NCBI GenBank assembly: GCA_003971905.1
Contig: RSEE01000021.1
Span: 496,001-560,000, forward strand
Direction: 5' to 3'
Length of the DNA stretch: 64,000 bases
Origin: Moniliella sp. 'wahieum'
Lineage: Eukaryota
Shown here: positions 9,899 through 56,075 of the stretch, one piece after another
Layout: every line of letters begins with the position of its first letter
Numbering within the stretch: the stretch's first letter is position 1
The notes under the pieces: generated by a model
What the model saw: the letters and a program-made list of their open reading frames with translations, nothing else
The model's database searches: none
Told to the model about the DNA's origin: nothing
Program-made: the position numbers and the translations under genes

Positions 9899-10060
9899 TG
9901 CATGATGCATGATGCATGATGCAAGCCTCATGCCCCAGGCAGGTCACGGTCACCGGTCATCCGGTCATACATCACCGACTGCGGATACGTTGCCTTTAGA
10001 ATGCTAGATCATCGATCGTCGACCGGTGATCGATGATCACATGTCGATCACAGCTTGTCA
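9899..10060. repeat. Heptamer palindrome arrays
   Basis: (TGCATGA)3TGCA at 9899-9923; TCACCGGTCA near 9950; GA-CCGG-TGA-TCGA-TGA at 10021-10036. Confidence 0.85.
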
Positions 10061-11033: not shown

Positions 11034-11984
11034 TCAGCGGAGGTGGGCAGGGAGCATCATCCCGTCGGTGACCTGGTCGCCATCGTCAATTTCAATGTCC
11101 TCGTCGTCGTCGCTTGCATTCTGGGCCGTGGCAACCTTAGTGCCATCTGCCTTGTTCCGGATTTGACCCACTACCGCCAGGTCCGCTCCGCTTTGCTCAA
11201 TCACAGCTTTCTGTTCAGGAGTGAGCTCAAGCTCGGTAAATGCACCCTCTGCCTTATCGCCGCGAGCCACAGCACTCCAGTAGTACGCCAGCGGGATAAT
11301 GCGGAACTCAGCTTGCTGGACAAGCAGGAGTTTCAGAATCTGTGCAGCCTCCTTGCTCAATTTCTCGCCCTTTTTGCAGACGGTGAAGTCCCGAAGCAGG
11401 GTAGGCACACCACGCTGCAGTTCGGTGGGCATGCCCAACTGCCTCAGTTGGGGCTCGATTGGATGAGGCAGATTCTCGGGCGGTGTGGTGCGCATCTGTA
11501 CGGGTCCCTTCGGGGACGACCGTTTCCGTCGCAATGTTGCCCGCGCGTGCAAAGTCGCGGCGGGAGTAGCTCTCGAACCAGTCCTGCACTTCTTCCGGGG
11601 GAGAATCAGTGAAGAGGATGCCTACTTGACCAGTCAGGCGCTGTAGGGCATAAAAACCATGTTAGTTTCGTTACCGAAAAACCGGCATGATTATGAAACG
11701 TACGTTGGACAGAGCAGAGATACCGGGTCGGAGTTCATTCTGTTCCTCCGTGCCAAGAGCAAAGCGAATGACACCGCTTTTTCCAAAGAAATACGGCTGC
11801 CCTCCCAGAGTTGCCGGACATCCTTGATGTAGGCATTTCGCATGTTGCCAATAGAGAAGAGCCATGCATAGGTAAACTTGTTGGCGGTATCACGGACCGT
11901 GTCGGCGAAAGACTCCTTGTCGGCCCTAGTCTTCTTACTGGTCTGCGTCAGCGAGACAACTTTGTTGCGGCGTGCGCGCGGCAT
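11034..11984 (-). CDS. MRT4: Ribosome assembly factor Mrt4
   Basis: MPRARRNKVVSLTQT, IGNMRNAYIKDVR, GILFT, DFARAG, EPQLRQLGMPT, AQILKLL; intron 11703-11641. Confidence 0.93.
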
Positions 11985-12228
11985 GGTGAAGAGTTCAGAG
12001 GTGGTGGTAGGAGGGGGTGGGGCAGCCCTGGCAGTGCTACTGCTTGTGGGGGAAAAGAAAAAAAATGTCACGGAATCCGGGCAGGCGGAATTGGTGTCCA
12101 TCGATCATCGATCGATCATCCTATCATCTCTGACGCGCAGCTCAAATGCACCGACACAGATATTTCATCTTTGAAATTCCAAAGATTTCAGTATTGTTCA
12201 GAGCAATGCAGTTCCAGCACGTGATGTC

Positions 12229-12325: not shown

Positions 12326-12506
12326 CACTATCTAGTCAGGCTTCTGCCCTACCGCCGGCCTCGTTGGCCAGCTCATCGTCGTTCACCTCACCCGCAAGAC
12401 CATCAAGGCTTAACTCGTACGTTGCTCCACCTTTGCTCTTCCCTCCGCCTTGCTCGCTGGACCGCCCTTCCGATCTGACTTCCATATCTCCACCACAGAT
12501 AAAAAA

Positions 12507-13101
12507 ATGGCCGCTGTCAACGCCGCTGCTACTCAGAGCAAGCCATTCGGCAAGGGCACCCGTACTTTGCCCGCCCAGCGGGCCCACAAGTACTACCCTG
12601 CTGTGGACGCCCCTAAGCCTAAGGTGACGCGCAAGGTCAACAAGCCCTCTAAGCTGCGTGCCAGCATTACGCCCGGCACTGTGCTCATCCTCCTTGCCGG
12701 CCGCTTCGCGGGCAAGCGTGTCGTCTTCCTCAAGCAGCTCGAGTCGGGTCTCCTCCTCGTCACGGGTCCTTTCAAGGTGAACGGTGTGCCTCTCCGCCGT
12801 GTGAACCAGGCCTACGTTATCGCTACGTCGACGCACATCGATGTGAGCTCTGTTAAGGTGCCCGAGAACGTGACCGATGCCTACTTCGCTCAGGAAAGAC
12901 CCGTGGCCCCAAGCCCGAGCAGGCCTTCTTCCTTGACCCGGCCAACAAGGCGGCCCCCCCGCTGCTAAGGTTGCCGACCAGAAGGCCATCGACGAAGCCG
13001 TCATCGCGGCTGTCAAGAAGGCTGGCCCAACCCACCTCAAGTACCTGGCCACCACCTTCTCGCTCAGCAACTCGGACAAGCCTCACGCCATGAAGTTCTA
13101 A
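12507..13101 (+). CDS. RPL6: 60S ribosomal protein eL6
   Basis: [53 protein letters not shown]-terminal [19 protein letters not shown]; indels near 12895-12960. Confidence 0.96.
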
Positions 13102-14681: not shown

Positions 14682-15050
14682 TTAGACTGCACAAGGGTTC
14701 AGTGGTTAGTCCTTGTCGACACGGCAAAAACCGGATGAACTACGCACTGTCGAGGGGTAAAGCATGATGCGAACGCTTTTGCCGAAAGCCGCAGGAGGGA
14801 TGTTGGTGGCAACTTGGCGCGCACAATACCGAGTTGCCGTGAGAGCGAGTGACGCGGCCCAGATAAACACGGACCTTGGTGCCACGGATCTCCTTGGTAC
14901 CCTTGTACGTAGGCCACACGCTTGCCGAGGTAGAACTTGGCATCCGCCTGTTGTCACACCGTCGATCTGGATGAGCGACGTGTGCGGGTGGCTGACATGC
15001 TTGGAGCGCTGGTGGCCCTGGATGCGGCCCTTGGCGTACAGGCGCGACAT
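14682..15050 (-). CDS. RPL33: 60S ribosomal protein eL33 (L33/L35A)
   Basis: MSRLYAKGRIQGHQRSK, TSLIQIDGV, GRVTRSHGNS, VRIMLYPST; terminal intron about 14747-14687 (GTGCGT..CTAAC..CAG); TAGGGTT at 15135-15141 upstream. Confidence 0.93.
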
Positions 15051-15674
15051 TTTTGATAGCTTGGTGGTCAAAGAGCAGCTGGCCGGAAAGGTACAACGAG
15101 CGTCCGGGCATCATCTCTGGAGGAGAACTTCTGCTAGGGTTGGAGCACTGGAACACTAGCTGCGGCGAATATTGCGCCTGACACATTGGGTCGAGATAAC
15201 CTACCACTGAAATTTAAAATTGGACTTGCTGGCCAAAATGGGACTACGTCCATCCTTCGACGGTAGTGGCACGTGAGGGACATGTGACATGCGACGACGC
15301 TGTGATGTGTGTGCTATGGCGGGATATGTGATGGGATACCTGACCACGCTGCTGCCATGGCAGGCTGTGCCCCCCAGGCGCTATCAATATCAGGGCCCGA
15401 TTGCCTCATATAGCTTGTGTTGAGGGACCGCCTCTTCCGGCTTCCTTCTCGTTATATACGCTGTGCAGGAAAGGAGGCGAGAACTTCACCATCTCCCTGT
15501 GGAAGAAGAAGAACATCGCCTACGATGAGCAACAACCAAAAGACGTCTCCCCGTTCAAAAAGCTGCCTAGTAACAAGGGCGCGGTGAGGATGCTGACCAG
15601 CTGACTCCTTTGAAGTAATTCCCCTCCCATCTAAGCTCCATCCCACTGGCATAAATGTTGAAAAAGCGAATCAG

Positions 15675-15727
15675 GCGAAGGCTGCGAGGCTGCGAAGGCT
15701 GCGAAGGCTGCGAAGGCTGCGAAGGCT
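15675..15727. repeat. 9-bp tandem repeat (GCGAAGGCT)~6
   Basis: Directly visible; one unit has a 1-nt deletion. Confidence 0.9.
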
Positions 15728-15984
15728 CTCGGCGCTATAGAAGTAATCCTCCGATAGCATTTCCTCGTGTGGCATGCCACGGGTATGTCAGACGACAGCT
15801 TTTGGCAGATTATGTGGACTGTGGTCCAGTGGAGATCCAATACTGCTGAGTATTGCAATCATCGGGCGACGGGGCCTTGCATGTTACTGAAACATGATCC
15901 CGTGTAGTTCTGCTGTTTTGCGTCTCGCTATGATACACTGTCGGTGCGTTGCGATGGACATGTGGACAGCAATCTTCCCGAAAT

Positions 15985-16300
15985 TGTAACCATATCATTG
16001 ACAGAGGTTCAGGATGTGGGACAAAGAAACGGGGCCTAAACCCATCTCATCTGGCGTGTGTTTCTTGTTGGCGCTAAATCTGGTTAGGAAACCAGAGGAA
16101 CCGCCAGCAGATGAGGTCCCTCTGGGCTCCGCCATCCGTTTCCAAACCGGAGATAGTCGGTGTGTGGACACGAATGAGCGTGGTAGACACCACAGCTGTG
16201 AGCATCTCCATGGAGACTCAGTAATTCTCATTGTTTCATTCATTCAAGTGCCCAAACATCTTGGCTCGCCGTCTAGGTGCATGGCACAGTATCCTGGCGT
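15985..16300 (-). mobile_element. Decayed 3' fragment of a CRE-like non-LTR retrotransposon
   Basis: CCATATCATTGACAGAG..GGGACAAAGAAAC..GCCTAAACC and CGCCATCCGTT..GTGTGGACAC..CGTGGTAGACA match the copies at 28.2, 29.4 and 38.6 kb. Confidence 0.75.
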
Positions 16301-16684
16301 CGCCATATAACCAAAAAAACTATGCCAAACCGACTGTCATACAGTTTTCCCTGATCTCGCTCCCATTTCCAATTTCTTCGTCCCGAGCGTCTCGCGTTTT
16401 CCCTGTCACTTCTACTTCGCACCATGTCCTCTACTCTTGCTCCTTCCCCACGAAAAGTCTCGACCCTGGTCTCCCCCTCGCCTTAGCCCCGACCGTGTCA
16501 AAAACAGAGTGGTCTTATCACACTACGTTGTGCAGCGCTAAACCGAACCCGCCAGGACGCCATTTATAGTAGGTGATAAATAACGAAAGTGAACCGGTGG
16601 CTAGGTGGATGGGGGAACGGTGGCTACGGTGGCGACGATGGAACGGTGGACGAGGGAACTATGGAACGTAGCACCCACAAGTCG

Positions 16685-17160
16685 GGCCTTAAGCCCTGGG
16701 GTCCTTTAGTTAATCATTAATCGCAAACGTACGACGTTCAACGTTTCAAATTGCAACGTTCATCTGAACGACCTTCGATCATCGAGATCATCGATCTGTA
16801 CGCGGTACGCGGTACGGTTCATCGCGGTTCATCGATTGATCAAGTATCAATCATGCATGCATGCGTGACAGCAAAGTGCGTCCCTGGTGGCGAACGCGTC
16901 GTCGACGAGCTCCGGGAACTGCGGGACAACGGGAACTGCGGCAACGGGGCACCAGGGCGCACCCTGGTGCATCGGCTCCCGGCTGAGATCCGAGATCAGA
17001 TCGATCAGCGATCGACCATCATGCGTCCATCATGCATTCAAAAGCTTCAAGTGAATAGCTAGTGACTAGTGACCGGTGATCATCGATCAAGTGATATAAG
17101 ATAGCCGATAATCGATAGCCTTGGGCCTTAGGCTTAGGCGCTAGGCCCTTAGCGATCGGT
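16685..17160. repeat. Heptamer palindrome arrays upstream of the WOPR gene
   Basis: Blocks with ACGT, TCGA, TGCA, AGCT, CTAG, CCGG and GGCC cores, e.g. CTAG-TGA-CTAG-TGA-CCGG-TGA at 17059-17079. Confidence 0.8.
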
Positions 17161-22050: not shown

Positions 22051-22435
22051 CTGTTGGGACCCGCGGTCCCGTACTTAGGCTAAAGGCATCACCTTCTCGA
22101 TCATCACCCTTCGCCCCTGATTTGACCTCCGAAGCCTCCACGTGTATACTCACTGCAGGCTTGTTTGAACCCCTGTCTCCTCTAGGTGTGGCATAAGGCT
22201 TAGACCTAACCACCACCACATGCACCACCGCGATTGCATTGCTCTACATTTCCAGAGGTTCATCACCCAACCCCTTGGGTTTCTCCGGTCTTACAGATCT
22301 TACACAAGCTTAAAGCGAATGAAAATATTTATCGCTGTCCTTGGTGGGCGCCCACAGCCACATGGCACAGTAACTCAGGACGAAGAAAAGCCCTATTGGA
22401 CGAGAAGTATACTAACTGGGAGACCACCGGGCCTC

Positions 22436-22520
22436 ACACGCCGGATGAGCGGGTCGGTTTAGGCGTAGTGTTTCCCTGTCCCAGCCTTAAGCTCTGTCAA
22501 TGATACGGATGCAATATAGT
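22436..22520 (+). mobile_element. 3' terminus of the CRE-like element
   Basis: GGTTTAGGCGTAGTGTTTCCCTGTCCCAGCCTTAAGCTCTGTCAATGATACGGATGCAATATAG, nearly identical to 29375-29442. Confidence 0.8.
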
Positions 22521-23029
22521 ACGCTCCTTACACCGGCCGACGTCATGATGAAGATGGTGTTAGAGTTGATGTAGGCGCAGGGCGCACGCGAAGACCTGTG
22601 TGTGTATTTGTGGTACATTTGGACGCTTCACGGACATAAGCGGGGGCGCCGATTGAACTCTGCGAGGTCAATATTCAGTGCTGTAGACATGAGACTAGGA
22701 ATTGGAGACGAAGAGGGTCACGAGATGAAAAGTGTTACATCCTCTTGCCCGGCTTCACAGCTTCATAACACCAACTTCCTTTGTTCCCATTCAAAGCAGC
22801 TGTATAGGTATGACGGTGTCACAAGGATCATCTGCCAGTGAAGAAGCGGAAAATGACGTGCCCGCAACGCCAAAGATCCCCACAAATGTGAGTCAGGCTT
22901 AAGGTGAAGTCCTAGACACTAGCAGTGCCTATACGTGTATGGATCATTTTCGATGTAACCCAGATTCCGGGCACGGTCGGCACACAAGCCAAACGACGTA
23001 TCATATGTGCACTGAGGGACATGACAGAC

Positions 23030-23596
23030 TTAAGCAGACTCCTCAACGGCCACGACGGGCTTCTTGGCTCCACGGACCTTGCGGGGAGGGCGGGGGGCCA
23101 CACCACCCTGTTGGGCGCGGATGATGCCCTGGGCCTTGGAGACGGCAGCCCTGTGCAGGTCCGGGCGGGTGGCGGAGACCTGGCGAGAGACAATACCAGC
23201 CGCGCGACGGGCGCCGCCAGTGACCGTGTTGCGGTTGAATTGGCGGGCGACATCCTGCGACGTGGCCTTGGGGTTTTTTGGGAAATGACAACGCCCTTAC
23301 CGTTCTTGGCGGGAGCAACGCCAACTGCAGCAGGGAAAACCGAGGAGTACTGGGAGCCCAAAGCGTTAGAGATACTCTCCATCGCGTCTGGGCGGTTGAC
23401 TCTTTGAAACGTCACAGGCACCCAGGCAGATCCGCATCGTCCGGGTCCAAGAGGGGTAGGGCACACATACCTTGGCCTGGTTGACGGCAGCGATGTTGCC
23501 CGCCTCGCGCGAGAAGAAGAGGGGCACCTGCTGCTGCTTAACAATGTAAGCGTTGCTCTTCTTGGTGAGCAGCCACTGAAGGTCGGAGGAAGCCAT
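23030..23596 (-). CDS. RPL28: 60S ribosomal protein eL28
   Basis: MASSDLQWLLTKKSNAYIVK, FSREAGNI, RPDLHRAAVSKA; intron 23470-23350; TAGGGTT at 23680-23686 and 23761-23767 upstream. Confidence 0.88.
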
Positions 23597-24889
23597 TGCG
23601 CTAAACAGTCGTGTCCAAACGGTGGGGGTTGGATAGGTGGGACAACGATGCGTCCCACTGGTTACGAGAGCAAGAGAGTTAGGGTTAGAAAATGTACCGC
23701 AGTAAGTAGGTTCTTAATTTGTGAAAGCAGGGATAAAGCTGTAATACAGTAAGACAACGTTAGGGTTTGTATTTTCCAGAAACATCAGCCATCCATCGGC
23801 CGCCAGCGTGTCGAGGTACATCTTCTTGCGCCGGTGTATCATCAACTGGTCGCAATCAGAAGGTCCTTACTGACTGAAAGATCTATATACGGAGCTGATC
23901 ACGGGTGGGGAGAGTGAACGAAGTTCGAGTGGAAGTGGTGTTGGGCATGAGAGAGACAGGAGAGGAAGCGACACAGGAGCGCAAACTGGCAGGCGCGGGA
24001 CCTGGGGCAGAACAGTGTGGCCTACCCACTGGTGCAAGGTCATCACGGCCGTGGTCAGGGATATGTCGAGGAGGGAGGTCGAAACAGGAGTTCTCTCGGG
24101 GCTATGCATACCATGAAAATCAGCAGGGAGAGTAGTAGGGGCTAAGCCACATTTGCTCTATATCCATACATGCGCCTTATTCCCCTACGTGTTGCATCAA
24201 GACGAACAGACCGCGGGATGACGAGATGGGTGGTGTGATTGTTGGAGAGAGGAACATATCCCTCTCCGCACTTGGTCACCACTGATTCATCTTTTCAGGG
24301 AGTGGGAGTAAGAAGCTTGGGATTGGAGCAGAACAGACTGTGTACTTCGTTTGGGAGTGGTCCACCTGACGCGGGGTTACGACAGCATCGTCGAGCTGTT
24401 TCAAAAGACGGCCTATAGGTCATCGTCTCCCACGAGAGATGCAACTGTCGATCATCGAAACAGCGCGTAGACTTGAGAGGTAACTACGGGAGACTAATTC
24501 GTAGCTTCATTCGCCATACAAGTCCGGGCGGTCACACATCGTTGGACGTCTGTGGAGACACGACGTCGAGAGCGGTCAACTTCTAAAGCTCACTGTCTAT
24601 GGTGCGGTTATAATCAGTACAACCTATATATCAACGAAAAGTATAAAAAACATCGTTCGTGGCAGCGTTTTTGTATGAAGACGTATAGCAAATCATGACG
24701 ACCAGATAGAGGGGGGAGCGAATAATCGCAGAAGTCGAAACCGTGACCGTTTACAGACCCATGCATCATGGCAAATACAAGGGCATGAGAAGGGAGGCAA
24801 AAAGAGACAAAAACTAATAGGGTCTTGGGACAAGAAGAAAAGACCAATGACCATGGCGAAATAGAAACGTATTAACCAGAAGGGCAACT

Positions 24890-28175: not shown

Positions 28176-28197
28176 AGGTGAGTATTGAGTCTCTACT

Positions 28198-28570
28198 TTG
28201 CAACCATATCATTGGCAGAGCTTATAAGGCTGGAACAAATAAACGTTGCGCTTGAACCAATAACTGTTCATCCGGCGTATATTTGCTTGTTAGCGCCATC
28301 CTCGTCTAGGGAACCAGGGGAATCGCCATGAGATCAGGACCCTTTGGTACCCGCCATCCGTTCCCATACACGGGGAAGCGCGCGTGGATACGGATGAAGA
28401 ACGTGGTAGTAGACATCCGAACGGTGAACCATCTGCATCGAGACTGGAGTCCATTCCTTCCAGATACCAGCATCTTTGTCCGCTGCTAACCAGGGGGAAA
28501 ACGGTTTTGGGCGCGTCAATGGTATTTGGCGTTCTAGAGTTAACAGGAGCTGCTCCACAAGCTGGACGCT
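28198..28570 (-). mobile_element. Decayed 3' fragment of the CRE-like element
   Basis: Reverse-complement homologue of about 29060-29442. Confidence 0.8.
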
Positions 28571-28574
28571 GCTG

Positions 28575-29442
28575 ATGGTCGCCATGTGGTTGAGCACAAC
28601 CCGACCCAATTGGCTCTCCGCCATTCCATCCGTCCCCTGCCTCAAGCTCTCTGACCAGCAGGTTCAGGTGGTCTCCAGCTCCACACGCTGTGCGGCTCCA
28701 AGCGCAGCATGTGCAAGTGCGGCGTCAGTCCTCGATGGAGCACATCATGGTGTGCACCCGCTCTCATTCCAAGTTAGTGCGTTGCATGAGCAGTGCGGGA
28801 GCCAGTTCGTGCGCTCCATCCCCCGGCACCCCATCCACACGAACACTATGCCAGTGTGGAGGAAGATGGGGCGGGCGCGGACGGAGCGCACAGCGCACTG
28901 ATTACGGCGTGATAGGGCCTGGAGCAATCGGATCTGTAATGGAGGTGGACCATATGCTGCGCGACACGGGAACGCAGGAGGCGCAGAGCGCGTACCGGAG
29001 GGTGGTGCACGAGAGCGCTGCGTCGCCTTTGGAACGCCGGGAGAAGAAGCTGCTTCGGCTGCTGGAACAAGCAGAATGCTACAAGAAAGCCAAGTACCAG
29101 GGACGCACTCAAGAGCCGTTTTCCCCTCTGGTTTTGACGACGCGAGGATACTACGGTGGTACCAAGACAGCGGGCAATTGGAAGGATTTGGTTACTGAGT
29201 CTCAATGGAAATGATTCCTCGCTCGGATGTCTACCACGTTCATCCGTGTCCACACGCGCTTCCTAGGGTACGGGACCGGATGGCGACCACCGGAGGGTTC
29301 TGATAGCTTGCCGGCGATCCCGCTGGTTCCTTAATCTTGGTGGCGCTTCCAAATAAACCCGCAAGATGAACGGTTCGGTTTAGACGTAGCGTTCCCCCTG
29401 TCCCAGCCTTATGCTCTGTCAACGATATGGATGCAGTATAGT
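28575..29442 (+). mobile_element. 5'-truncated CRE-clade (RLE) non-LTR retrotransposon, the longest copy in the window
   Basis: Across frameshifts: NWLSAIPSVPCLKLSDQQV, a CCHC-like knuckle (CKCG..MEHIMVC), RTDY..EVD and KKAKY..FSPLVLTTRGYYG (restriction-like endonuclease layout), then the shared 3' UTR. Confidence 0.75.
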
Positions 29443-29477
29443 AAAGGATATACTGCATATCATCTGGTCATTTTTCC

Positions 29478-29700
29478 TACACTGCAATCATATCGTTGAC
29501 AGAACTGTGAAGGTTGGGACAAAGAAACACTGCGCCTAAACCGACTTCTATATGCTATAACCATATCATTGACAGAGCTTAACGCCTCGTTCCATCCTCC
29601 TCCTTCACAGTCGACTCGTTGTGGATGTGGGCTGGAGCGCACCAGCTGAAAGAAATGGGCACCCGAACCGTCCCGTTCAATATGAGGTAGGAGCCAAAAC
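29478..29700 (-). mobile_element. Two short inverted fragments of the same element
   Basis: 29478-29545 is a 3' terminus; 29555-29580 is a second terminus joined to an internal piece homologous to about 28800-28870. Confidence 0.7.
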
Positions 29701-30114: not shown

Positions 30115-32687
30115 CTAATGTCTGGGTGGACCTGACTTCCTTTTTGCCGCACCCCCTAGTACTCTTATACGTGCTTCCTTGTCAGGGTGCGCCCTTTTTG
30201 ACTTAATGTGGGCGCTAAACCCTATGCAATCATAGACATACACTGGGCGGGCGAATGAAATGAAGAGAGTAGGTGAGTCTTGTGAAGGATGTGAGAAACA
30301 TGCGTATGCCAGAAACGCGCCATTGGCCGATGGCAAAGAATGAAAGCAACGAGCACCAACGCTCCTGGACATGAGATCCATCCCAAATCTGGGCTTGTAC
30401 AAATGAGGCGGCATATGTGTGGGGATGTTAGGAATGAGGAAGTGTTTCCTGCCCGCGGTGTGGGCAGAATGAGCCTGGCGCCCCCGAGCCGAAGAAGCAT
30501 GCTTGTTAACCAGAGGCGTGCTACTCATTGATGCTGACGAGACGGACTCGTGCGACCCATGATCCCCCTCCGATCTCGAGCCTGAATGCGCCGAGGAATC
30601 CGTCCCGGAAGTTTCGCGCACGTGTTCGCCAGAAGGAGCGCTCCGTCCCTGTGTAGACACGTCCAGCATTCCTGCCGCCACCATCGCCGCCACACTTTCC
30701 CCGATGGCTTCGGGAGCCTTGCCCTTATTATAATTCGCCGGCCTCGTTGCTTCTGTAGAGGCGCGAATGAGGTAGTAGCTGCGATGGGGGCTGTTGCTTG
30801 AGCGTTCGAGGTTGCCTGAGCGTTCGAGGTTGTCTGGGCGTTCGAGGTGTCTGGGCGTTCGAGGTTGCCTGGGTAGAGTCTGGCTTGGCATCCATATCGA
30901 CCGCGTCCACCTCCTCGTCCAGTCGGCAAAGCTGCGGCACAAGGGACAGAGCAAGCCTGGGTGAAGGCGCATCAGCAGAGGGGGATGCACTTGTAGTGAA
31001 AGGAATGGCGGCAGGGAGCAATAAACAAGCTCTGAGAAACCGTCATGCAAAGAGGCAGATACAGCATTCAGCTATCGGCACGGCTGGGGTACATCTTTCG
31101 CTGGCACGGCTGCGGTGCCATCTTTGGCCGGCACATGCAGCGTGGCACTGTCGCTTTTGTGCAACTGCTGGCACGGTAGGTAGCGCCGAGCTTGGGCCGC
31201 ATACTCCGTCTGCACATCAACGTCATGTAGCTCGACCTTCTGAACCGCCTGGTAGGCGTTGCGTCCTCTGGAATAGTTAACACCCGAGCTTCACAACGTC
31301 TCCCTCGTGCAGCTCGGTTGGCCACTGGCCACCAAAGGCTTGGAGAGACGTGTATTGTTGACAAACGTGCCAGCACTGCTACCCAGGTCACGGATCCACC
31401 ACTTGACAGCAGGGGTTTCTGACGTTTGTGCAGGCGCCTGAACAGACGAATCCAGAGCTTCTTCCCCGAAGACGCATGCTCATCGTTCGCCCCTAGGGCC
31501 AGAGGTGAGATGGGACGATTCATATCTAGGGGGCCCACGTCTTCGGAAAGAGGTTTCCCAGCCTTGGGGGGGGAGGGTCAGAGGTGCACCAAATCTCAAC
31601 GTGTTTTCGCGAAACGACCTTGGCCGACAACGCAGCACGATGTTGTTCCAGGCGTGGTGGGTTGCCATTGGTATTGGGGATTGCGCCACCACGCATTCGA
31701 TGAGGAGATAGAGGAGTAGGGCCGGTAGAATGATTGCCGCCATCACTCCCATCGGCATTGCCTAAGGCGCGTGCTTCGACGTGTGAGGGAGACATGGGTG
31801 CTCGCCTGCCCAGTTGGGTGCACCCCTCCCGTGTCAGCGGAGAGTTCCGGATTAAAGGGCGAGCGATCAGTAAAGCGACCAAGGAACAGTGCCTCTCCAT
31901 CTTGCTCGATCTGGCGCTCGATGGGATCAAACCAGACCTGCATTCCTCGTGCTCCGTCCAACATTGGAACAAGGCGAAACGTATGAAGTGGATTTTGACC
32001 ACGATCCGAGCCCGGTGGAGCAGGGGGAGGAACCTTTTCATGCCAGGACAAATCCCAAGAGGGGGAAGTCACCTCGGGGGCAATTTCAGGGGAAAGCTGG
32101 GGAGCAGCATTAGCAGACACGTGGTGGCCATCACTGCCGAGTAACCGAGCAGCGGCAGCGGTAAAATGACCAACCAAGCCAAATGAGCTGCGGTGGGTGG
32201 GGCTGTCAAGGGCGAGGACGGAGCCGCCAGCAGATGCCGCGCTGGTATAACCGTCCATTATGTTGGTGCCGCTTTGTTGTTGTTCGAGGAAAGGGGTTGG
32301 CTCCGGTGCCGCTTCCGGTGCAGGCTCCGGTGCCGCCGCTGGCTGTGACGATGCGACAGTGCTATTCATGGGACCGGATGCGCGACGGAAGGGGTTTTTA
32401 GAGGGCGTATACTTCGCCATACGGGGTCCGAGTCGTGGCGATGCCCTCAGCAGTAGATTGGTGGTGGAGACGCTCACAGGGCGGGGAGGCTGGGATGAAG
32501 TGTCGCTGCCACCCATGGCGTGTGGGGCCGCGGCATTGGCAGCAGTCGCACGCAGATCGGATGCGGGTGGGACAGGGACTGAGCCGCGACGGCGAAACCA
32601 CGTGCGTGGAGCAGAGAGGCGCGAAGACGACGGACCGGGCGAAACGCTGCGGTCGATGCCTGGAAATGAAGACGGTGGCGGTGCCAT
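30115..32687 (-). CDS. DMA1: FHA + RING-H2 E3 ubiquitin ligase (Dma1/Chf family); 3' end uncertain
   Basis: LFLGRFTDR and SAKVVSRKHVEIW (FHA); ECCICLF..LFIAPCRHSFHYKCI..CPLCRSFAD (RING-H2) read across indels; 18-bp coding repeat (QATSNA)x4 at 30800-30870. Confidence 0.88.
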
Positions 32688-32869: not shown

Positions 32870-34035
32870 TCGAGCTCATGCGTCATGCATCACGCGTCAA
32901 GCTTCAGCTCGTCCCTCAAGCCCCAGGCTGAGGCGGGCTAAGCGCTAACGCTCAGGATGGCCAGGGCCTGCGGCTCTGGGGCCCATCGGGAGATGATCGA
33001 TGATCCGTGGTGCATGATCCGTGGTGCATGATGCATGATGCATGACATGAGTGACTAGAACTCTAGTAACGAGTAGACTGCAAAGGTAAGTGTTCCACTG
33101 CCCCTGCTCGCTCTGCCTGAGCTCTCGGAGACGTGCGTCTGCAGTCTCTGGAACAAGTACGTTTAGTACAAGGACTAATGCAAGGCACAGGAGGGTACAG
33201 GACATTCGCCCGCCCGCCCGCACCGTTTTCTCCGCACTGATGCAGTGCCTGCCTCCGACAGTTCCCCCACAGTCTCCCCCGCAGCCTCGCCGCAGGCAGC
33301 AGGCTTCTCTCTCATGCTGACGTCACATGATCACATACATTCAGGGTACCTTTGCTCGGCGCTCCTTCCAAAATTCACAAGCTCTCAGATCTCAATCTCA
33401 GATCTCAGATCTAAAGCTTCCAGCACTGAGGCTGAGGCGCTGAGGATGCCACGTCCTGTGGGCACACTCTAGGTGGGATAATGTGGCGGCACATTGATAT
33501 TGAGATTGGGGTTCTCAAGCTTCACTTGAAGCTTGAAGTCCAACAAGCTCTGATGCCTGCTGATGCAGCCATGCACTTCCTTCCAAACACGACGACGACA
33601 GAAGGCGAGAGCATGGTGGAATGTAACGTGCGTTGGTGCTACCGCTCTCTTGTCCCGCACATTGGTATTCTGCCCCAGTAGCACCACAACCTCCACATCG
33701 TAGCTGAGACTCAGCTTTGAGATCTGGAGAGCACTGCTTCCTATGTTCAACGTTCACATGTTCACAACAGGCCCCGGTCGCATGTCGCATGTCACATGTT
33801 ACATGTTTACAGCCTCTATGCCTCTGTTCCACAACTATTTCTCAGGTGCCCGATGCCCGGTGCTGCAGGTTAGTTTTGTAACGCATGATTTCGATCATGC
33901 GTATCATCGATACTAAATCTTAAGCCACAAACTCGCTCGAAAAGCGAGGTACGGGAAGCAGCTCCACGTAGCCTCCCTATTAATTAACCCGTTAGCCCTA
34001 AGTTAAGCACTTAGCCTATTAAAAGCGCTAAGCCC
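32870..34035. repeat. Dense heptamer palindrome arrays upstream of DMA1
   Basis: Mixed-core run 32876-32906; TGCA-TGA run about 33024-33045; TCA-GATC-TCA-GATC-TAA-AGCT 33398-33418; TGA-AGCT-TGA about 33526; CATG run 33781-33806. Confidence 0.85.
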
Positions 34036-34149
34036 ACACCTGTTCGTATTATCATCGGATGGTGACAAAAAAGCACGATTTTGTAACGAGATAGACTAAA
34101 AAACCGGAGGGTACCCTGACGCGTGACGTGGCTCTAAATCATCCCTACG

Positions 34150-34726
34150 GCTGTGGCTACTGTGCCAGTGGCACGGAAGCTTATATTTGGCCGGGGCCCT
34201 GCACCTCTCTTCAGTGTGTAGGGCACAGAGAGAGCCACACGGCCATGCAGGGGGTATACTATGCTTCCAAGGGATGTGGCGCATTTTTAGAAGCAACAGA
34301 AGTGAACGCCGCAACACTCAAGAGCCTTTCTTCCCCTTGTGGTCATGACGACGTGCGGATACTATGCTACCGCAAGACCCCCACCAACAGATGTTTTGCT
34401 GGGCACCGCAAGGAGAATAAAAATGTACTAAATCGAGAAAAGTCCCTCATTATGATTGAAGAAGGTTCACCGGTCACCGGTCACCGGTCACCGCGCTCAC
34501 ATGTGTATACCAACACGTTATTCATTCGCATCATTCGTATTCACGGACGCTACGTCCATTTTGTGGAAGCGAATGGCGGGCACCCAAGGGTCCGACTTAT
34601 ACTAGCGGGGCTCCCTTGGTTTCTTGAATGATTTTGGCGCCAAAACAAGCATGCAACGCACGCCGCATCAGCAGGGTTTTTCGAGCGCAACGTTTTTTGT
34701 CCCACAACTCTGGCCTTAGGCCTTAA
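34150..34726 (+). mobile_element. Highly decayed CRE-like fragment containing heptamer expansions
   Basis: CACTCAAGAGCC..TTCCCC..TGACGACG..GGATACTA (34315-34365) matches 29106-29152; 34500-34705 matches 29226-29405. Confidence 0.7.
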
Positions 34727-34893
34727 GTCCTGAAAAAGGACAAGTCTTCCCTGCTACAGCTTCAACGTGTGTCAGCTTTCTTCATCGGGTGGTATATATC
34801 TCCACATGGAAGGGAAGGACGGTAGGGGCCTATGTGTTTGATAGGGGTGTTGCGTAAAATAACATCACACAGGAAATACAGGCAATACGGTAA

Positions 34894-35309
34894 AAGCTTC
34901 AAGCTTCAAGCTTCAAGTGTGAGACTCTGTCTCAGGGGTAGTGCATGCGGGGGATGGGAAAAAGGGCCTAGCAACTGAGACTGCTGTGCGGCCGACCGCT
35001 ACAAACACACTTTTTTATTACAGTGCTAATTGAGATGACATGTGACATTCATTGATTTGATCGCGGTTCCATAGGTATGATTATGTTGACGTATGTTACG
35101 CAAGGATGATGAGATCTGGGACCACGCAAGGCAACCCTGTTTCCCGCCATATATAATGCACCAGTACCCCCCCAGCAAATCATTGTGGAAGACTGGGGGA
35201 ACCGGGAGAACCCACGGAGTTGAAATTTGAGCGGGTAACCGTATAAACCGGATAACCGATATTGCAATGGCGATGATCGATGATGCATGATGCATGATGC
35301 ATGATGCAT
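34894..35309. repeat. Heptamer palindrome arrays
   Basis: (AAGCTTC)3 at 34894-34914; TGA-TCGA-(TGA-TGCA)4 at 35274-35308. Confidence 0.9.
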
Positions 35310-38300
35310 TTGATGTTGCAGTAGTACTGAGTGAGTGCAGTGTTGAGACGTTGAGGTCTAATAAGCTTAAGAAGGCTACACACCTGAAGCCTGATGGAAG
35401 AGACCGGGGTTTGAACAATTAAAAAAACCGCAGTGTGTAACAGACTTCTCTCGGAAGGCAACAAACCTTATAGAAGAGAGAGTTATGACTACTAAGTGGT
35501 CCATGAAGCATGAAGCATTGGGCCCGTCCCAAAACATACGTTGCGCTCTCTGCTATTTGGGGGCACGATTTGGATGTTGAACATCTTGAAATGTATATTT
35601 GAGCAATGCAATATCGATGGTATATATGGTTAAGGTCTAAACCTTCTGTAACGGGAGTTACAGGCTTCCCAGGCGGAGACCTTCCCTGATGCCTATATAC
35701 CGGAGACAAGACTTGCGGAGAACTGAACGCTGTTTATATCCAAAGTCGAAAGAACACTGGCATAAACGTAGGAGGGTCACGAGTAGTGCTTGCTGTTCGT
35801 CCGAAGAACCTAGCCCCTGCAAAAGAGGTTGCATGTTAGGGGCTGTGCGAGAAAACGAGAAGCTCCGATGATGGGCGAGGGAGGGGAAGCGAACTAATCT
35901 AAAAGATGATTCTTCTAGAGTGGAGAGTGACTACAGAATAAGGGTGAAGGGGAAACAATGGCGGGCAGCTTAATAGGCCATGACAACTGGATCTAATAAC
36001 AAGCAGGTTTTATATAGAAGAGACGGGGAAAAGGAAAGACCAATAGGCCTATACAGCGAAAAGGGGAAACGATTCAGGAGGAAGGAGTGTTGATCAATCA
36101 CGAGAGGCACGAGGTGAGAGACGGGGCGAGGTTCAAGATGCAAAGCGGACCTGAGACGAGAAACGAGAGGCGATAAACCGAGTCGAAACCATGTGTAGTA
36201 GTGTTTTGGAGTTTAGACGAGCCCGAGCGCAGAAGAGATGATTGTTGTGGGTTTTGTAGTTAGGCCGAGAATCCGAGTCACGATAGCGAGCACAATGGCG
36301 AAAGATTGAGGACTCGAGAAGTGATCATAGGGAGAGAAGCCGAGAAGCAAGAGCGATCGTCGTCCCGTGACACCTTTTCCTAGCTCCATAATACCCGGAA
36401 GAGACAGGGTTTCGAACAAGCCAGAGTAAACACGTGGAGGCTTCGTCGTAAGAGCAAAGGACATGGTGCGAAGCGGAAGAGCAGGGAAAGTGTCTCGGGA
36501 TGAAAGATTGGTAATGGGAGCGAGATGCGCGAGGTCCGTGAGATACTCTATTATAGTATGACAGAGGACAACGAGCATATACCGTTATAATATACTGGGT
36601 CTGTTGAACTCCTCAAGTCCACCCGATACCTAGAAATAGAGTTCAAAAACTCATTGCAAGCATTGAAAGAGAGGTGACGACAGCTTCGGTATGATGCATG
36701 ATACTCAAAAGACTCAGAGATCGAGGGACGCGATGTGTATACGTGTGTGGTTGATCCATTCAGAGGCTATGCCAGTTAACTGGATTTAGTACACTTTTCG
36801 CTGCCATTTGTGTTTGCGATTAATTGAACGTAGTATGCCTCTTGAGAGTACCGACAACCAGGTTCAGACTTTCCCTAAAGTCCCCTTGTCATTGTGTGCG
36901 TGTCACGGTCGTTAGTTCCCAAAGCGCAAGTGCACATCTTGAGGGATGACCTCATGTAAGCAATGAGAATCCTCGCCTGCACCCGTTTTCAAGATATAAG
37001 CCTCACACAGGTACTCCAAGTACTTTTGTAAATACAGATGTATTCCATATTTAGTGTGCTCCCATATATCCCTAACGAACATAACTTGTTGCGACAATAA
37101 AGAAGGGGAAGTAAACATGGCGGGACCTATATACCCTAATGGCACCAACATACGACCGCCGGTGATGGAGGCAGGGACATTTGATTAATGTCACAGAGGA
37201 TGTGAAGATAGACTATTCCATACATACGTGTAGAGGAGAACAGAGACAGGATGAGAGGCGGGTGATGCCTTACGGAAGGTAAATATATACGCCCAGGAGA
37301 GACACGACTCAAAGGCGAGAGAACAAAGACCTCAGTCGAGACGAAAGGCAGCAGAATGGAGGAATTGTTCTTGAGACACAACAGAAAAGAGGGCATGGAT
37401 CAAAGCACGAAAACAGGGGAAGGACGAGAGACGCTCAACAGAAGGAAATTGTTGACGATGGGAGTGAAGTCTACCAAGGTACTATGATATGTGACAGCTG
37501 TCGGACGTGTAGATGATGGCTTCCCTAGACAGTCGCTTTTTGTGTTACGATGCCCGGACGGGGATACGCCACTGTACTACCCCCCCCCCCCCCCCCCTCC
37601 ACCCTCTCTGCGCGCCTTTTTGTGCTCCTGTGTTGCGGTCACATCTCCTGTCGTCCTCTCTGGACGAACGACAAACCGATTTCATACTCGATACTTCACT
37701 CGCTCTCATCCGTGTTTTCGTGATCCATCCCCTTAGCTCTCCTTGAGTCAGTAAGGGCTATCTGTGATTGTACGGCCATTTGATCACGGAGAATCTGGTC
37801 ATGGCTCAACGCAGCGCCCATATTCATCCAGAACGGTGAGAAAAGATGGCACTAAATTGCTTGTTATAAGTAGACGATCACATGAGAAATTTCCTAACGT
37901 TTTCCGGAAAACTATATTGAATACGTCTTTCCCCCCTTCCCTGGTGTGGCCGTCTTGAAACGGATAAAATCTTCGTCATCAAGAGCCTGCTATAAGAATA
38001 TAGAAGTTTGACACCTGGAAATAACTATGGCTCAAAAAAGTCTCTCTCTCTCTTTGACTGCTTTATGGTTAACCGGTACACTAGTATAATGCTCGTCCGT
38101 ATATTCACATCATTCGTGCGACATCCCACATAGGAACGAAGAAAAATGGAAGGAGAGCCGGAAAAGTTATATACTGAGTGCCCTACAGTTGTATGGCGAC
38201 GCCATTTGCATTCTCATTGGGCGAGGGCGAGCTGAGGGAACCCCGGACGAACGCGGACTTGGTGCAAGAAGCGTTTTCTATGGTATTTGTTCCGGCTTCA

Positions 38301-38547
38301 AAGGAAATTCAGATGTTCGGCGTTCTTTTCGTGGCTTTCTTCCCTCTTACAACGCTTTCATTTTATTTTGCTCTTTGACTTCCCCTTTTTCATCGGCTGT
38401 GCTAACGCTTATGACTTTTTGAGGTTCAGAAAAGCGCACCACGTCGCCTTCACGCTTTGTCTGAAGCAACTGATCCCGTAGACACACCCCGGCGGGCTCT
38501 TGAGTCGCCCCCTCTGTCATCTATCATCTGTGCTCTTCGGAATGTAG

Positions 38548-39230
38548 CTATATTGCATCCATATCATTGACAGAGCTGTGAAGGCTGGGACGGGGAAACG
38601 CTACGCCTAAACCGCGACCCGTTCATCTTGCGTGTGCTGCTTGGTAGCGCCAACCCCGCTTTAAGGAACGGAATCGCCAGGAGGTCAGGATGCCCGCCAT
38701 CCGTTCCCATACCCTAGGAAGCGCGTGTGAACATGGATGAACGTGGTAGACATTCGAGCGAGGAACCATTTCCATTGACAGTCAGTAGTCAAATCCTTCC
38801 AGTGCCCGAGCATCTTGCCCGCTGTCTTGGTACCGTAGTATCCTCATCGCGTCGTCCAAATCAGAGGGGGAAACGGCTCTTGAGTGCGTCCCTGGTGTAT
38901 TTGGCATTTTGTCGCATTCTGATTGCTCCCCAGCAGCTGAAGCAGGTCCTTCTCCCGGCGTTCCAACTATAACGGCGGCGTCGCGGTGCTCTCATCATCA
39001 TGCACCATCTTCCGGTACGCGCTGTGCGCCTACTCTTCCTGCGATCCCGTGTGGTGCGCAGCGTGTGGTCCACCTCCGTTCCTGATCCTCCGATTGTTCC
39101 AGGCCCCATTACGCGGTAGTCGGTGCGCAGTGCCCTCCCCCCGAGCCTCGACCCATCCTCTTCCTCCACAGGAGGTTCGTTGTGGACGTGGGTGTCGGGG
39201 ATGGCTATCATATATCACAGCATCACCGTG
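38548..39230 (-). mobile_element. 5'-truncated CRE-like element copy
   Basis: 3' terminus CTATATTGCATCCATATCATTGACAGAGC at 38548; translation RTDYRVMGPG..EVDHT..NAKY; homologous to 28810-29442. Confidence 0.8.
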
Positions 39231-39775
39231 TTCAACTGAACGTTCACCTTGAACGCACCTTGAAGCTCTTGAAGCTTGAGCGCGCTTGAACGTTCAACTG
39301 TGTAAACACTGCTGTCCGCATGCGGCATTGTCACATGTGATGTCACGTGGGCAACATGTGATGCATGAGTGCGGCACATCAACCCTAACGCCTAAGGCTA
39401 TCCCCTGTCTGGCGTTGGCCGGAATGCATCATGCATCATGCATCATTCATCACACGCCACTCGTCACGCGTCATGCATCATGTAACACGTCACTCCAGTC
39501 ACATGTCACAAGTGACTGATAGTGACTAACGACTGCGGCGACGATAATCTAATCGATAACCCGATTCATCGATAACATGGAGATAACAATACAGACCACT
39601 GCGCGTTACAAATATGCTACCCGCACGCTCAAGAACCTTATTGTTGCCGCGGCTCCTCTTGCTGGACGCCGTATTGAGGCGCCAGTTGAGCCCGTTGGAT
39701 GATGAGAAGGCCTTAGGCCTGCGACAAGGTCCGGAGGCCTGAGGGGGCCTAAGGCCTAAGGCCTAAGGCCTGAAA
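39230..39775. repeat. Dense heptamer palindrome arrays
   Basis: ACGT/AGCT block 39230-39300; TGCA/CGCG register 39425-39484; TCGA block 39550-39575; (GGCC-TAA)3GGCC-TGA 39746-39773. Confidence 0.88.
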
Positions 39776-54157: not shown

Positions 54158-54229
54158 ATTGCGTCTCGCCACCTTGCCATTGTTCCACCGTCGCCGTTTA
54201 CCCCCCCCCATTCGTTTTCAAACCAGAAA

Positions 54230-54500
54230 GTAGCGCGGGTAATAGATATACCAATGGGCGTGTGGACATGTAAGCCAGTGAATAACTCTTCATCGGTTAA
54301 TTGTTTCCACAGGGTTCTCAAACACCTTGCCCGCCGTCGTCTTGGCGGCAGAGTATCTTCGTGCCATCATAATCAAGGGACAGAAATGCTCTTGAGTGCC
54401 ACTCTGGTCCTTTGTCGCCGTGCGCGCTTGTCCCAACAGTCGAAACAGCTGCTCTCTCCCTCGTTTCAAAGGCGTCGTGAGTCCCTCTCGTGTATACCAT
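54230..54500 (-). mobile_element. Decayed CRE-like internal fragment
   Basis: GCGTGTGGACA, CTTGCCCGCCGTCGTCTTGG, CTCTTGAGTG and CAGCTGCTCTCTCCC match 38722-38965. Confidence 0.65.
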
Positions 54501-54537
54501 CACGTTCCGAAAAAAAGGGTTGTCGCCTCCTTGCATG

Positions 54538-56075
54538 GTGCATGATGCATGATCGATCGATGCTAGGCGCTAGTGTGCGTGCCACGTGCGACATGCATCA
54601 TGCATCATGCATCATGCATCATGCACCACGCACCATGCATCACGCCCATCGATATCTCCGCTTGTCAATAGGGATAGTTAGTTACTAGCTACTAGTTACT
54701 AGTTTTACTAACAAACTGCGATGCGGCCCTGCTGAGACACCCACAGTTCCCACCAAGCGGGGCCGCTCGTGTCAGCGCGTTCAGCGCCATAGGAGCAGCA
54801 GAGGGCAGCGCGAGGCGGCGCAGGGCAGCATAATTGCTGGTTGAACGTGTTGAAAACGCTGAAGCTTCAAGTCAAGCTTCAAGTTCAAGTGAACTTCGAG
54901 GACGGAAGGTGGAAGGTGGGATCCCGTCAAGCACTGGGACTGAACGTTCAGCTGAATGTTGAACCGCTAAACTTCAACCCTCGGCCTCAGCGCCTCAGCG
55001 CTGAGGCTCAGCACTGCCTCAGGACGCGGGACCGTGACCGCGTGACCGGGGACCAGGGACCGGTCCAAAGCGCTACTCGCTATTAACATACTGGTCGATG
55101 ATCGATGATCGATGATCTGCCACGCCTTAGATGGCCCGTGCGCAATTGCGGGTACATGGTACACAGGCCCCGGTACGTATTGCGCGTCTCTTCGTTCGCT
55201 GTTGCGGTAACGTAACGTCGTAACTAGCGTAACTAGTAACTAGCTAGTAACTAGTAAAAACGCTCACAACAACCCCATGGTACAGCCAGCAGAAGCTTGA
55301 AGCGCTTCAAGTTCAGCCTGAACGTCCTGAGGCCTGAGGCCTCGTGAACGTGTGAACGTTCTGAGGCCGGCCTGAACGTGTTGAACGTCAATCGACATCG
55401 TTCTTGAAGCTTGAAGCTTGAAGCTTGAAGCTTGAAGCTTGAGGCTTCAAGTTCGTTCGAACGGTGCAAACGATCAGCTCTCCCTGATCGTTCGATGTGG
55501 GCAAATTCGGGTGAGCGGGGTAACCGGTACGGTAACAGGTAACCGGCAAAATGATCGAATGATCTGTAACTTGATAGCCGTGATTGAGGCGTAACGCGTA
55601 ACGCGTGATGCATCCCAGTACCCAGTCTCGATTGCTTGGGTTCTCCCCACGCCTGGGGTGGCAAATGCGCCAACAAGCTATGACTGCAAGCCAGCTACTT
55701 GCACGACCTGCCCTTGGACTTGGTTTCTGGGATCTTGTGTAGTGGTGCACTGCTGTGCTGGTTGGGGCCGACCCACTCCGATCACAGATTAGTGCTGGGC
55801 ACTGGGTCGCGGAGCCAGACCGGCCCAAGGCCATGCAGCACAGCGACAGTGCTCCTGCGCTCGTCGGCTAAGCGCTAAGGCCAGCCGGCCCACCACCTGT
55901 GCAGCGCTGCCATGTGCAACGCAGCACACTGCACCTGTGCGCTTCCATGCGTCACACTCGCCATCATGCGTCACGCGTCACGCTGCGCCTGGCTCGCCGG
56001 TTTTGTGGGAACGCACGGCGCCAGTGCGCCCGAGTTGGGCGAGATAGCCTAACGTGAACGTTCAAGTCGCACTTG
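54538..56075. repeat. Largest heptamer palindrome array field, upstream of glycogen synthase
   Basis: (TGCATCA)4TGCA 54594-54625; CTAG block 54682-54702; (TCGATGA)3 55095-55115; (TGAAGCT)5 55405-55439; TAA-CGCG-TAA-CGCG-TGA-TGCA 55592-55612; TAA-GCGC-TAA-GGCC 55869-55882. Confidence 0.92.

Follow-up and report, generated by a model that had tools for sequence, protein, structure and literature searches.

The window analyzed here, by which we mean the whole stretch of 64,000 nucleotides (64 kb) at positions 496,001 to 560,000 of contig RSEE01000021.1 from Moniliella sp. 'wahieum', is nuclear DNA of a basidiomycete belonging to the Ustilaginomycotina. All comparisons were made within this one window and against protein databases. 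Positions 34315-34707 on the plus strand hold a decayed copy, here called copy F, of a family which is the 3' end of a LINE-like retrotransposon without long terminal repeats (non-LTR). Two short heptamer arrays are associated with this copy: (TCACCGG)3.9 at 34467-34493 (site 1), inside the copy, and GGCCTTA GGCCTTA at 34712-34725 (site 2), just behind it. Both belong to a class of palindromic heptamers, with T and A beside the central base, which is found across the window, and the first array grew in place after the element had inserted. An earlier note on this DNA had proposed such a birth of heptamer arrays inside a dead retrotransposon copy, and all strings quoted in it were recovered exactly, at the coordinates it gives, in a string check.

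The family was recognized as an interspersed repeat by self-comparison of the window, with pairs among 15983-16278, 22435-22521, 28198-28485, 28816-29441 and 38548-39204. When 33001-36500 was compared with the window, 34531-34704 matched 28397-28231 with 68% identity. A nucleotide profile of about 634 positions was built from five sister copies, with copy F left out and copy G not used in the building; the window was searched with nhmmer, which revealed G and H as additional copies, and the eight copies were aligned with hmmalign. The best-preserved copy in the window is D (28544-29448, plus strand, E 1.6e-202). Copies C (38541-39235, E 3e-195), B (28189-28533, E 1.4e-105), A (15971-16329, E 1.4e-90) and G (54192-54530, profile match 54508-54204, E 9.3e-19) are on the minus strand. 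Copy E (22411-22528, plus strand, E 4.3e-30) consists of the 3'-terminal ~100 nt only, and fragment H (29473-29551, minus strand, profile match 29544-29473, E 2.5e-17, two weaker matches beside it) of the 3'-terminal ~72 nt. Copy F (E 1.8e-20, model positions 302-592) is 5'-truncated and retains the last ~70 codons of the open reading frame (ORF) and part of the 3' untranslated region (UTR); no homology to the family was detectable in 34150-34314. It agrees with the sister majority in 192 of 283 columns (67.8%), the lowest value of the eight, followed by copy G with 68.1%. Judged by its sequence, copy F is dead.

The copies begin at very different model positions (D 2, C 2, B 5, G 193, F 302, A 329, E 529, H 560), and six of the eight (D, C, B, A, E and H) reach the 3' part at model positions 631-634, while F ends at 592 and G at 472. 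A common 3' end together with varying 5' truncation is the pattern of non-LTR elements. The family copies end with ...GCAATATAG, and unrelated sequence follows. They have no A-rich 3' tail, a feature which is not universal among non-LTR elements. Target-site duplications were not found, as no k-mer of at least 6 nt is common to the 5' and 3' flanks of six copies, which are old and have imprecise 5' ends.

Pfam scans of window ORFs revealed no reverse transcriptase (RT), integrase or transposase, neither in a set of 16 ORFs nor in 115 of the 172 ORFs of at least 110 amino acids, and likewise none in 123 ORFs of at least 45 amino acids from 27.7-29.9 kb and 33.3-40.1 kb. These RT-free scans seemed to speak against a retrotransposon, but this was overturned by a chain of remote protein homology. 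The 206-residue ORF of copy D (28594-29211) matches the protein P0212 (279 residues) with E 7e-45 and 60% identity, and also P0214 (353 residues) with E 3.7e-6. RVT_1 is present in all six longer relatives of P0214. P0212 in turn aligns with E 2e-21 to residues 822-1028 of P0216, an RT protein of 1036 amino acids whose RT domain (439-638) lies upstream of the aligned part. In tblastn searches with eight RT-family proteins the ORF remnant was placed on copies D (P0212 residues 35-278, E 1e-67), C (E 1e-54), B (E 9e-15), A and G; copy F was undetected with these proteins and was found by the nucleotide profile alone. Because of this chain from copy D through P0212 and P0214 to RT proteins, together with the pattern of 5' truncation, the family is assigned to the 3' end of an RT-bearing non-LTR retrotransposon, comprising the C-terminus of the ORF and ~120 nt of UTR. 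In this respect the dead retrotransposon copy of the earlier note is borne out.

Relatives of the element carry an RT domain whose best solved-structure matches, for P0216, are R2 proteins (E 2.8e-6 and 3.7e-6), followed by LINE-1 ORF2 (E 7e-5). In their C-terminal region, an invariant C-x2-C...H...C is followed by R-x-D ... D (C163, C166, H174, C178, R226, D228, D244), and P0216 and P0220 have C2H2-like motifs at the N-terminus. No Pfam family was matched by the conserved C-terminal region of the RT relatives; it resembles the CCHC and restriction-like nuclease module of R2-type elements and may be a nuclease of this kind. In these respects, and in the common 3' end with varying 5' truncation, the family is similar to non-LTR elements of the R2-like or restriction-like-endonuclease type. 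It differs from them in that site specificity is not evident here, as the 3' flanks of its copies differ, and in that neither recognizable target-site duplications nor an A-rich tail were found. Copies B and D are arranged head to head around 28535, and a cluster of short 3'-terminal fragments occupies 29449-29646. Within this cluster, 29581-29552 and then 29544-29473 follow each other head to tail on the minus strand, and a terminus fragment of ~22 nt (plus strand) stands directly after copy D. Repeated insertion near the 3' ends of the family itself is possible.

The array at site 1, which can also be read as (GGTCACC)n, was reported by Tandem Repeats Finder (TRF) at period 7 with 100% matches and a score of 54. 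It is perfectly periodic over 27 nt and is a tandem repeat far beyond chance. Its unit is a 3+1+3 palindrome with a T-N-A centre in the rotation GGTCACC, and 34464-34504 reads GGT(TCACCGG)3TCACCGCGCTCACATGT. The array lies inside the profile alignment, where it adds 25 nt relative to the family and occupies an insert state in both the hmmalign and the nhmmer alignment. At its left edge stands the ancestral seed GGTTCACCG (34464-34472, plus strand), common to the sisters, on which the first unit begins at 34467. According to hmmalign, the same site reads GGTTCACCG in B, GGTTCCTCG in C, GATTCCTCG in D, GCTCACAGC in A and TTATTCACTGG in G. Over a longer stretch, the sisters read GGTTCACCGTTCGGATGT (B, reverse complement of 28413-28430), GGTTCCTCGCTCGAATGT (C, reverse complement of 38750-38767), GATTCCTCGCTCGGATGT (D, about 29208-29230), GCTCACAGCTGTGGTGT (A) and TTATTCACTGGCTTACATGT (G); the last has ACATGT just downstream of the site in common with copy F. 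All five sisters which cover site 1 are without the array, and one of the eight family copies carries arrays. The site corresponds to the codons W-F-T-A-R-M, ~35 codons before the end of the ORF, and P0212, a better-preserved relative, reads RWFTARMS and is free of the array.

Since it is missing in five of five sisters and in P0212, the array is derived and arose after the insertion. Because its first unit overlaps the ancestral GGTTCACCG, it grew in place from a single TCACCG (plus G or C) rather than being imported. This supports the view of the earlier note that it arose from a chance seed. It is very improbable that the array was instead present in the master element of a subfamily, or was converted from another (GGTCACC)n locus. 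The comparison covers the family copies of the window, and a degenerate array of the GGTCACC type, the only other one in the window, exists at 9942-9968. Its flanks, however, have nothing in common with site 1, for which reason conversion from there was rejected, and at site 1 the ancestral sequence of the family passes without a break into the first unit. Moreover, the array was probably not part of an active master element, because an insert of 25 nt would shift the frame of the ORF. GGTCACC, the palindromic heptamer, is missing from the ancestral sequence, as is the hexamer ACCGGT; the unit is repeated in the frame TCACCGG. Both palindromes exist only since the first duplication. As the array is perfect over its 27 nt inside a copy which differs from the family at about one site in three, it is either much younger than copy F or is kept uniform by continuing turnover. 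An ongoing process, as the earlier note had called it, is inferred only from this purity set against a copy divergence of 32%.

An open frame of 178 codons (34095-34628, plus strand), which extends through the dead copy together with its array, has no family match and agrees with the frame of the retrotransposon ORF only downstream of the array. Its openness is therefore probably due to chance.

Site 2 is an exact 14-nt run of period 7 and of the CCTTAGG type. It begins 5 nt past the end of detectable family homology at 34707, and 34712-34727 reads GGCCTTAGGCCTTAAG. The family reads CAGCCTTAAG near this site (22482-22491 in copy E), and the tail of copy F has no recognizable counterpart of the last ~40 nt of the family. 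A lone 14-nt run of period 7 is weak in itself, as shuffled sequences give 3.3 per window; chance is nevertheless unlikely for this pair because it is a member of the T-N-A palindrome class. Derivation from the family motif is plausible. The earlier note presupposed that 34150-34726 aligns to the family across both sites; this holds for site 1, within the aligned 34315-34707, but 34150-34314 and site 2 fall outside the alignment.

Throughout the window, period 7 stands out among tandem repeats. It accounts for 38 of the 113 TRF rows by our own count, and perfect arrays of at least 17 nt (two periods plus 3 nt) number 18 at this period, whereas 20 shuffles gave a mean of 0.1. With the same criterion of two periods plus 3 nt, the counts are 3 for period 6, 0 for period 8 and 3 for period 9. 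After low-complexity filtering, 45 runs of at least two units have period 7 compared with 3.3 in shuffles (~14-fold), and 32 of these are self-complementary. Of the perfect runs with period 7, 47 are 14 nt or longer, and 32 of these can be rotated into a 3+1+3 palindrome. Units of the form XY-T-N-A-Y'X' make up 31 of these 47 runs and 31 of the 32 palindromic ones, with a calculated chance of at most 2.7% per unit. Such a heptamer can equally be described as a 6-bp A....T palindrome with one spacer base. Single heptamers follow the same rule: T-N-A palindromic 7-mers occur 320 times, compared with 206 +/- 15 in dinucleotide-preserving shuffles (z 7.7), and 271 of them are isolated, single-copy palindromes. 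Palindromes with A-N-T, C-N-G or G-N-C centres were at or below shuffle expectation in the same window. A preference of derived changes for making T-N-A palindromes, which the earlier note had suggested as a test, is unsupported in a small sample of 3363 nt of transposable element (TE) copies, where copy-specific palindromic 7-mers are T-N-A in 13 cases (4 inside the arrays of copy F), C-N-G in 13, G-N-C in 9 and A-N-T in 5.

The T-N-A 7-mers concentrate in the 1-kb bins at 21, 33-35, 39 and 54-55 kb. They are densest at 21.4-21.8, 32.9-35.5, 39.2-40.4 and 54.5-56.0 kb, where they are isolated or form arrays of 2-6 units. Examples are (CTTGAAG)5.7 at 55403-55442, (CATCATG)4.9 at 54592-54625 and (GGCCTAA)3.7 at 39746-39771. 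On rough gene models, the dense bins seem to be mostly non-coding DNA upstream of genes. This location, together with the dyad symmetry of the units, would suit selected cis-regulatory modules, in which tandem sites serve dimeric factors and the copy in the TE was kept on account of its position within a long divergent promoter region. We nevertheless consider such modules quite unlikely. The period-7 arrays, which lie in non-coding patches across the window, have at least 10 different flanking pairs (XY) and share nothing but a T-N-A centre and a period of 7 nt. The class can therefore be attributed neither to one element nor to one binding factor, and a mutational rule fits better than any single factor. 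The strict head-to-tail spacing of 7 nt is not explained by selection either, and isolated sites are just modestly enriched. The same diversity of at least 10 types bears out the statement of the earlier note that the pattern is not carried by one element.

With regard to growth, the run length modulo 7 is 0, 1 or 2 in 20 of 31 arrays, a peak which points to steps of whole units. The phases of the array boundaries are near uniform, with left indices 0-6 taken by 10, 6, 7, 10, 11, 11 and 7 of 62 boundaries. A frame consisting of a 4-bp palindrome plus TNA was tried and was uninformative (18 of 62 boundaries, ~17.7 expected). Growth by whole units without a preferred phase, and the plain, non-palindromic, single-copy heptamer that seeded site 1, are what ordinary replication slippage would produce by itself, if self-complementary units, whose arrays are able to fold back on themselves, expand faster through slipped-strand hairpins. 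As a full account we hold slippage alone to be doubtful, since it leaves the restriction to period 7 unexplained: self-complementary runs are at about chance level for period 5 (11 of 51), and there is no excess for period 6 (1 of 33), period 8 (0 of 9) or period 9 (0 of 6) either. The T and A beside the centre of all but one of the palindromic units would also be without a reason. Fold-back energy was considered as the cause of the T-N-A rule and rejected, because, among the four classes of centre, it is the T-N-A units that fold back most weakly, with a mean of -4.2 kcal/mol compared with -7.4 for C-N-G and -8.1 for G-N-C.

The boundary phases and the ancestral state of site 1 also bear on another explanation, in which the arrays are footprints of a cut-and-paste transposon that duplicates 7 bp of its target site. 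Whenever it inserted at a palindromic T-N-A target and was cleanly excised, one 7-bp copy would be added and the target recreated. Unit length, dyad symmetry and location in gene-upstream non-coding DNA would all fit, and basidiomycete DNA transposons with 7-bp duplications are known, namely hAT7 and Kyakuja (PMC12730594). Excision footprints would start from an ancestral heptamer in the repeated frame; at site 1, however, the ancestor reads GGTTCACC, without GGTCACC, and TCACCGG was duplicated. The phases are not framed on the palindrome, perfect arrays would demand a scarless excision each time, and no transposase was found among the window ORFs scanned. We therefore regard footprints as unlikely.

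Some arrays deviate from the simple pattern. At 33000-33045 and 35273-35309, 1.3 kb upstream and 0.6 kb downstream of copy F, there are higher-order arrays of 14 nt which consist of two alternating heptamers (ATGATCC GTGGTGC type) and are ~90% alike. At 17059-17090, the sequence ACTAGT G ACTAGT G ACCGGT G places different 6-bp palindromes in one 7-nt register, and the step from ACTAGT to ACCGGT requires two palindrome-preserving changes. A window-wide search for such in-register neighbours of different palindromic units, which would point to compensatory change, gave no clear signal (4 pairs at distance 7, 0-8 at other distances).

On the comparisons above, which document the retrotransposon origin, the derived state, the growth in place from a seed and the specificity of the class, we infer an order of two steps and a protein agent. 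A chance first duplication, followed by unit-wise amplification specific to palindromes, is the reading we favour, with about even odds of being right. On this proposal, a copy of the element inserted and died, leaving the heptamer TCACCG plus G or C in its former C-terminal coding region. A small tandem duplication of random phase, of the ordinary slippage or repair kind, would have made the T-N-A palindrome GGTCACC across the unit junction. The non-palindromic two-copy runs of the window (period 7, 13; period 8, 9; period 9, 6) indicate that generic small duplications exist as possible seeds. An amplification specific to the lineage would then act only on arrays of at least two copies in which the unit forms a 3+1+3 palindrome and its central base is flanked by T and A. 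The putative agent would most likely be a dyad-symmetric DNA-binding or DNA-cutting protein, which adds 7 nt per event through a staggered break and fill-in, and the same process may lie behind the other T-N-A arrays in the non-coding patches of the window. If a dyad-symmetric protein opens the DNA with a stagger of 7 nt, this would account for the period and the palindromy of the units, for the freedom of the central base and for the T/A rule.

Several points weigh against amplification of this kind. Neither a transposase nor a nuclease domain was found in the window ORFs scanned (16, 115 and 123 ORFs). A dyad-symmetric stagger of 7 nt predicts arrays framed on the palindrome, yet the boundary phases are near uniform. 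At site 1, where alone the ancestor is known, the unit that was duplicated, TCACCGG, differs from the palindrome. Single-copy T-N-A palindromes are common, with 271 isolated cases, and on this view nothing would keep them from being the main targets. The purity of the array could reflect continuing slippage instead of youth. The 3363 nt of TE copies contain one secure case only, and with a family represented by its window copies, a subfamily already carrying the array is conceivable.

A more far-reaching version of the palindrome-specific amplification is possible, but tentative. This fungal lineage may have an active sequence-specific mutator with a 7-nt stagger, be it a dyad-symmetric nuclease or a transposase or its domesticated derivative, which would write and extend T-N-A arrays in open, mostly gene-upstream DNA. 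If so, dead retrotransposons would record the states before and after, and the genome would directly reveal from which seed, in which phase and by which steps repeats are born.

Beside the retrotransposon family and the heptamers, the window encodes condensin Cnd3, glycogen synthase, a cyclase of the squalene/lanosterol type, a multicopper oxidase, transporters and five ribosomal proteins. The genes for the latter, L7, P0, L6, L35A and L28, are located at 2043-2669, 11037-12104, 12414-12965, 14709-15213 and 23369-23713 and span ~22 kb. An exon of the glycogen synthase gene shows 76-78% identity to Exobasidium, Tilletiaria and Ceraceosorus. Cnd3 is less conserved; its best named match, in Tilletiaria anomala, has just 47% identity, and the lineage is therefore poorly sampled. 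No Rfam family reached the gathering threshold in the whole window. A second diverged repeat family, unrelated to the retrotransposon and without protein match, occurs in short pieces with 73-85% identity at 35570-36526, 22130-22270 and 16354-16438, and in three places lies less than 2 kb from a retrotransposon copy. Further repeats, none of them of the heptamer class, are (GCGAAGGCT)6 at 15675-15727 and an 18-nt unit (4.4 copies, 30793-30873) and a 27-nt unit (2.2 copies, 31076-31134) inside a long minus-strand ORF without family match. Likewise outside this class, a run of 18 C is located at 37580-37597.

The birth of a tandem repeat is usually inferred without the ancestral sequence, which the TE fossil supplies here. 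At site 1 an ordinary single heptamer served as seed, growth proceeded in whole 7-nt steps and the palindrome which defines the class came only after the first duplication. Should the rule of the class hold genome-wide, this branch of the Ustilaginomycotina, of which few members have been sampled, would have a sequence-specific way of duplicating DNA that has not been described so far. Such a process would continually remodel promoter-proximal DNA, and would be missed by surveys of simple sequence repeats that stop at 6-nt units; as outlined in PMC4700210, these surveys usually cover units of 1-6 nt. In a literature search, mainly at the level of abstracts, no account of fungal arrays of palindromic heptamers came up.

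Among known systems, DNA transposons with 7-bp target-site duplications occur in Basidiomycota, hAT7 in Pucciniales and Kyakuja in Agaricomycotina (PMC12730594). Their duplications and excision footprints share with the present arrays a direct duplication of 7 bp per event. They differ in that no element is present at the locus here, the ancestral 34464-34472 has no palindromic heptamer and the array frames are not palindrome-centred. Heptamer repeats are also dealt with for Nostoc and other bacteria (PMC4692102; bioRxiv 10.1101/2022.06.06.494920). Like the present arrays, the cyanobacterial short tandemly repeated repetitive sequences comprise many different 7-nt units, arranged head to tail in the intergenic DNA of one lineage, and their cause is unexplained. 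They are bacterial, however, to our knowledge their units are not T-N-A-centred palindromes, and no relationship is implied.

Fill-in at staggered double-strand breaks is known to give small duplications, for example of 4 bp at topoisomerase II breaks. The likeness is that the stagger length of the enzyme fixes the length of the tandem duplication; we know of no enzyme which combines a 7-nt stagger with a preference for T-N-A palindromes. Microsatellites are likewise known to be born within TE copies, where proto-microsatellites are extended from chance seeds. Site 1 resembles them in that a short seed, already present in a neutral TE fossil, gave rise to the repeat once the element had inserted, with the sister copies giving the ancestral state. 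It differs in its 7-nt unit of the T-N-A 3+1+3 palindrome class, which is not predicted by ordinary slippage. The birth of repeats in TE fossils is thus already known, and what is new is the class of heptamers, 3+1+3 palindromes with T-N-A centres.

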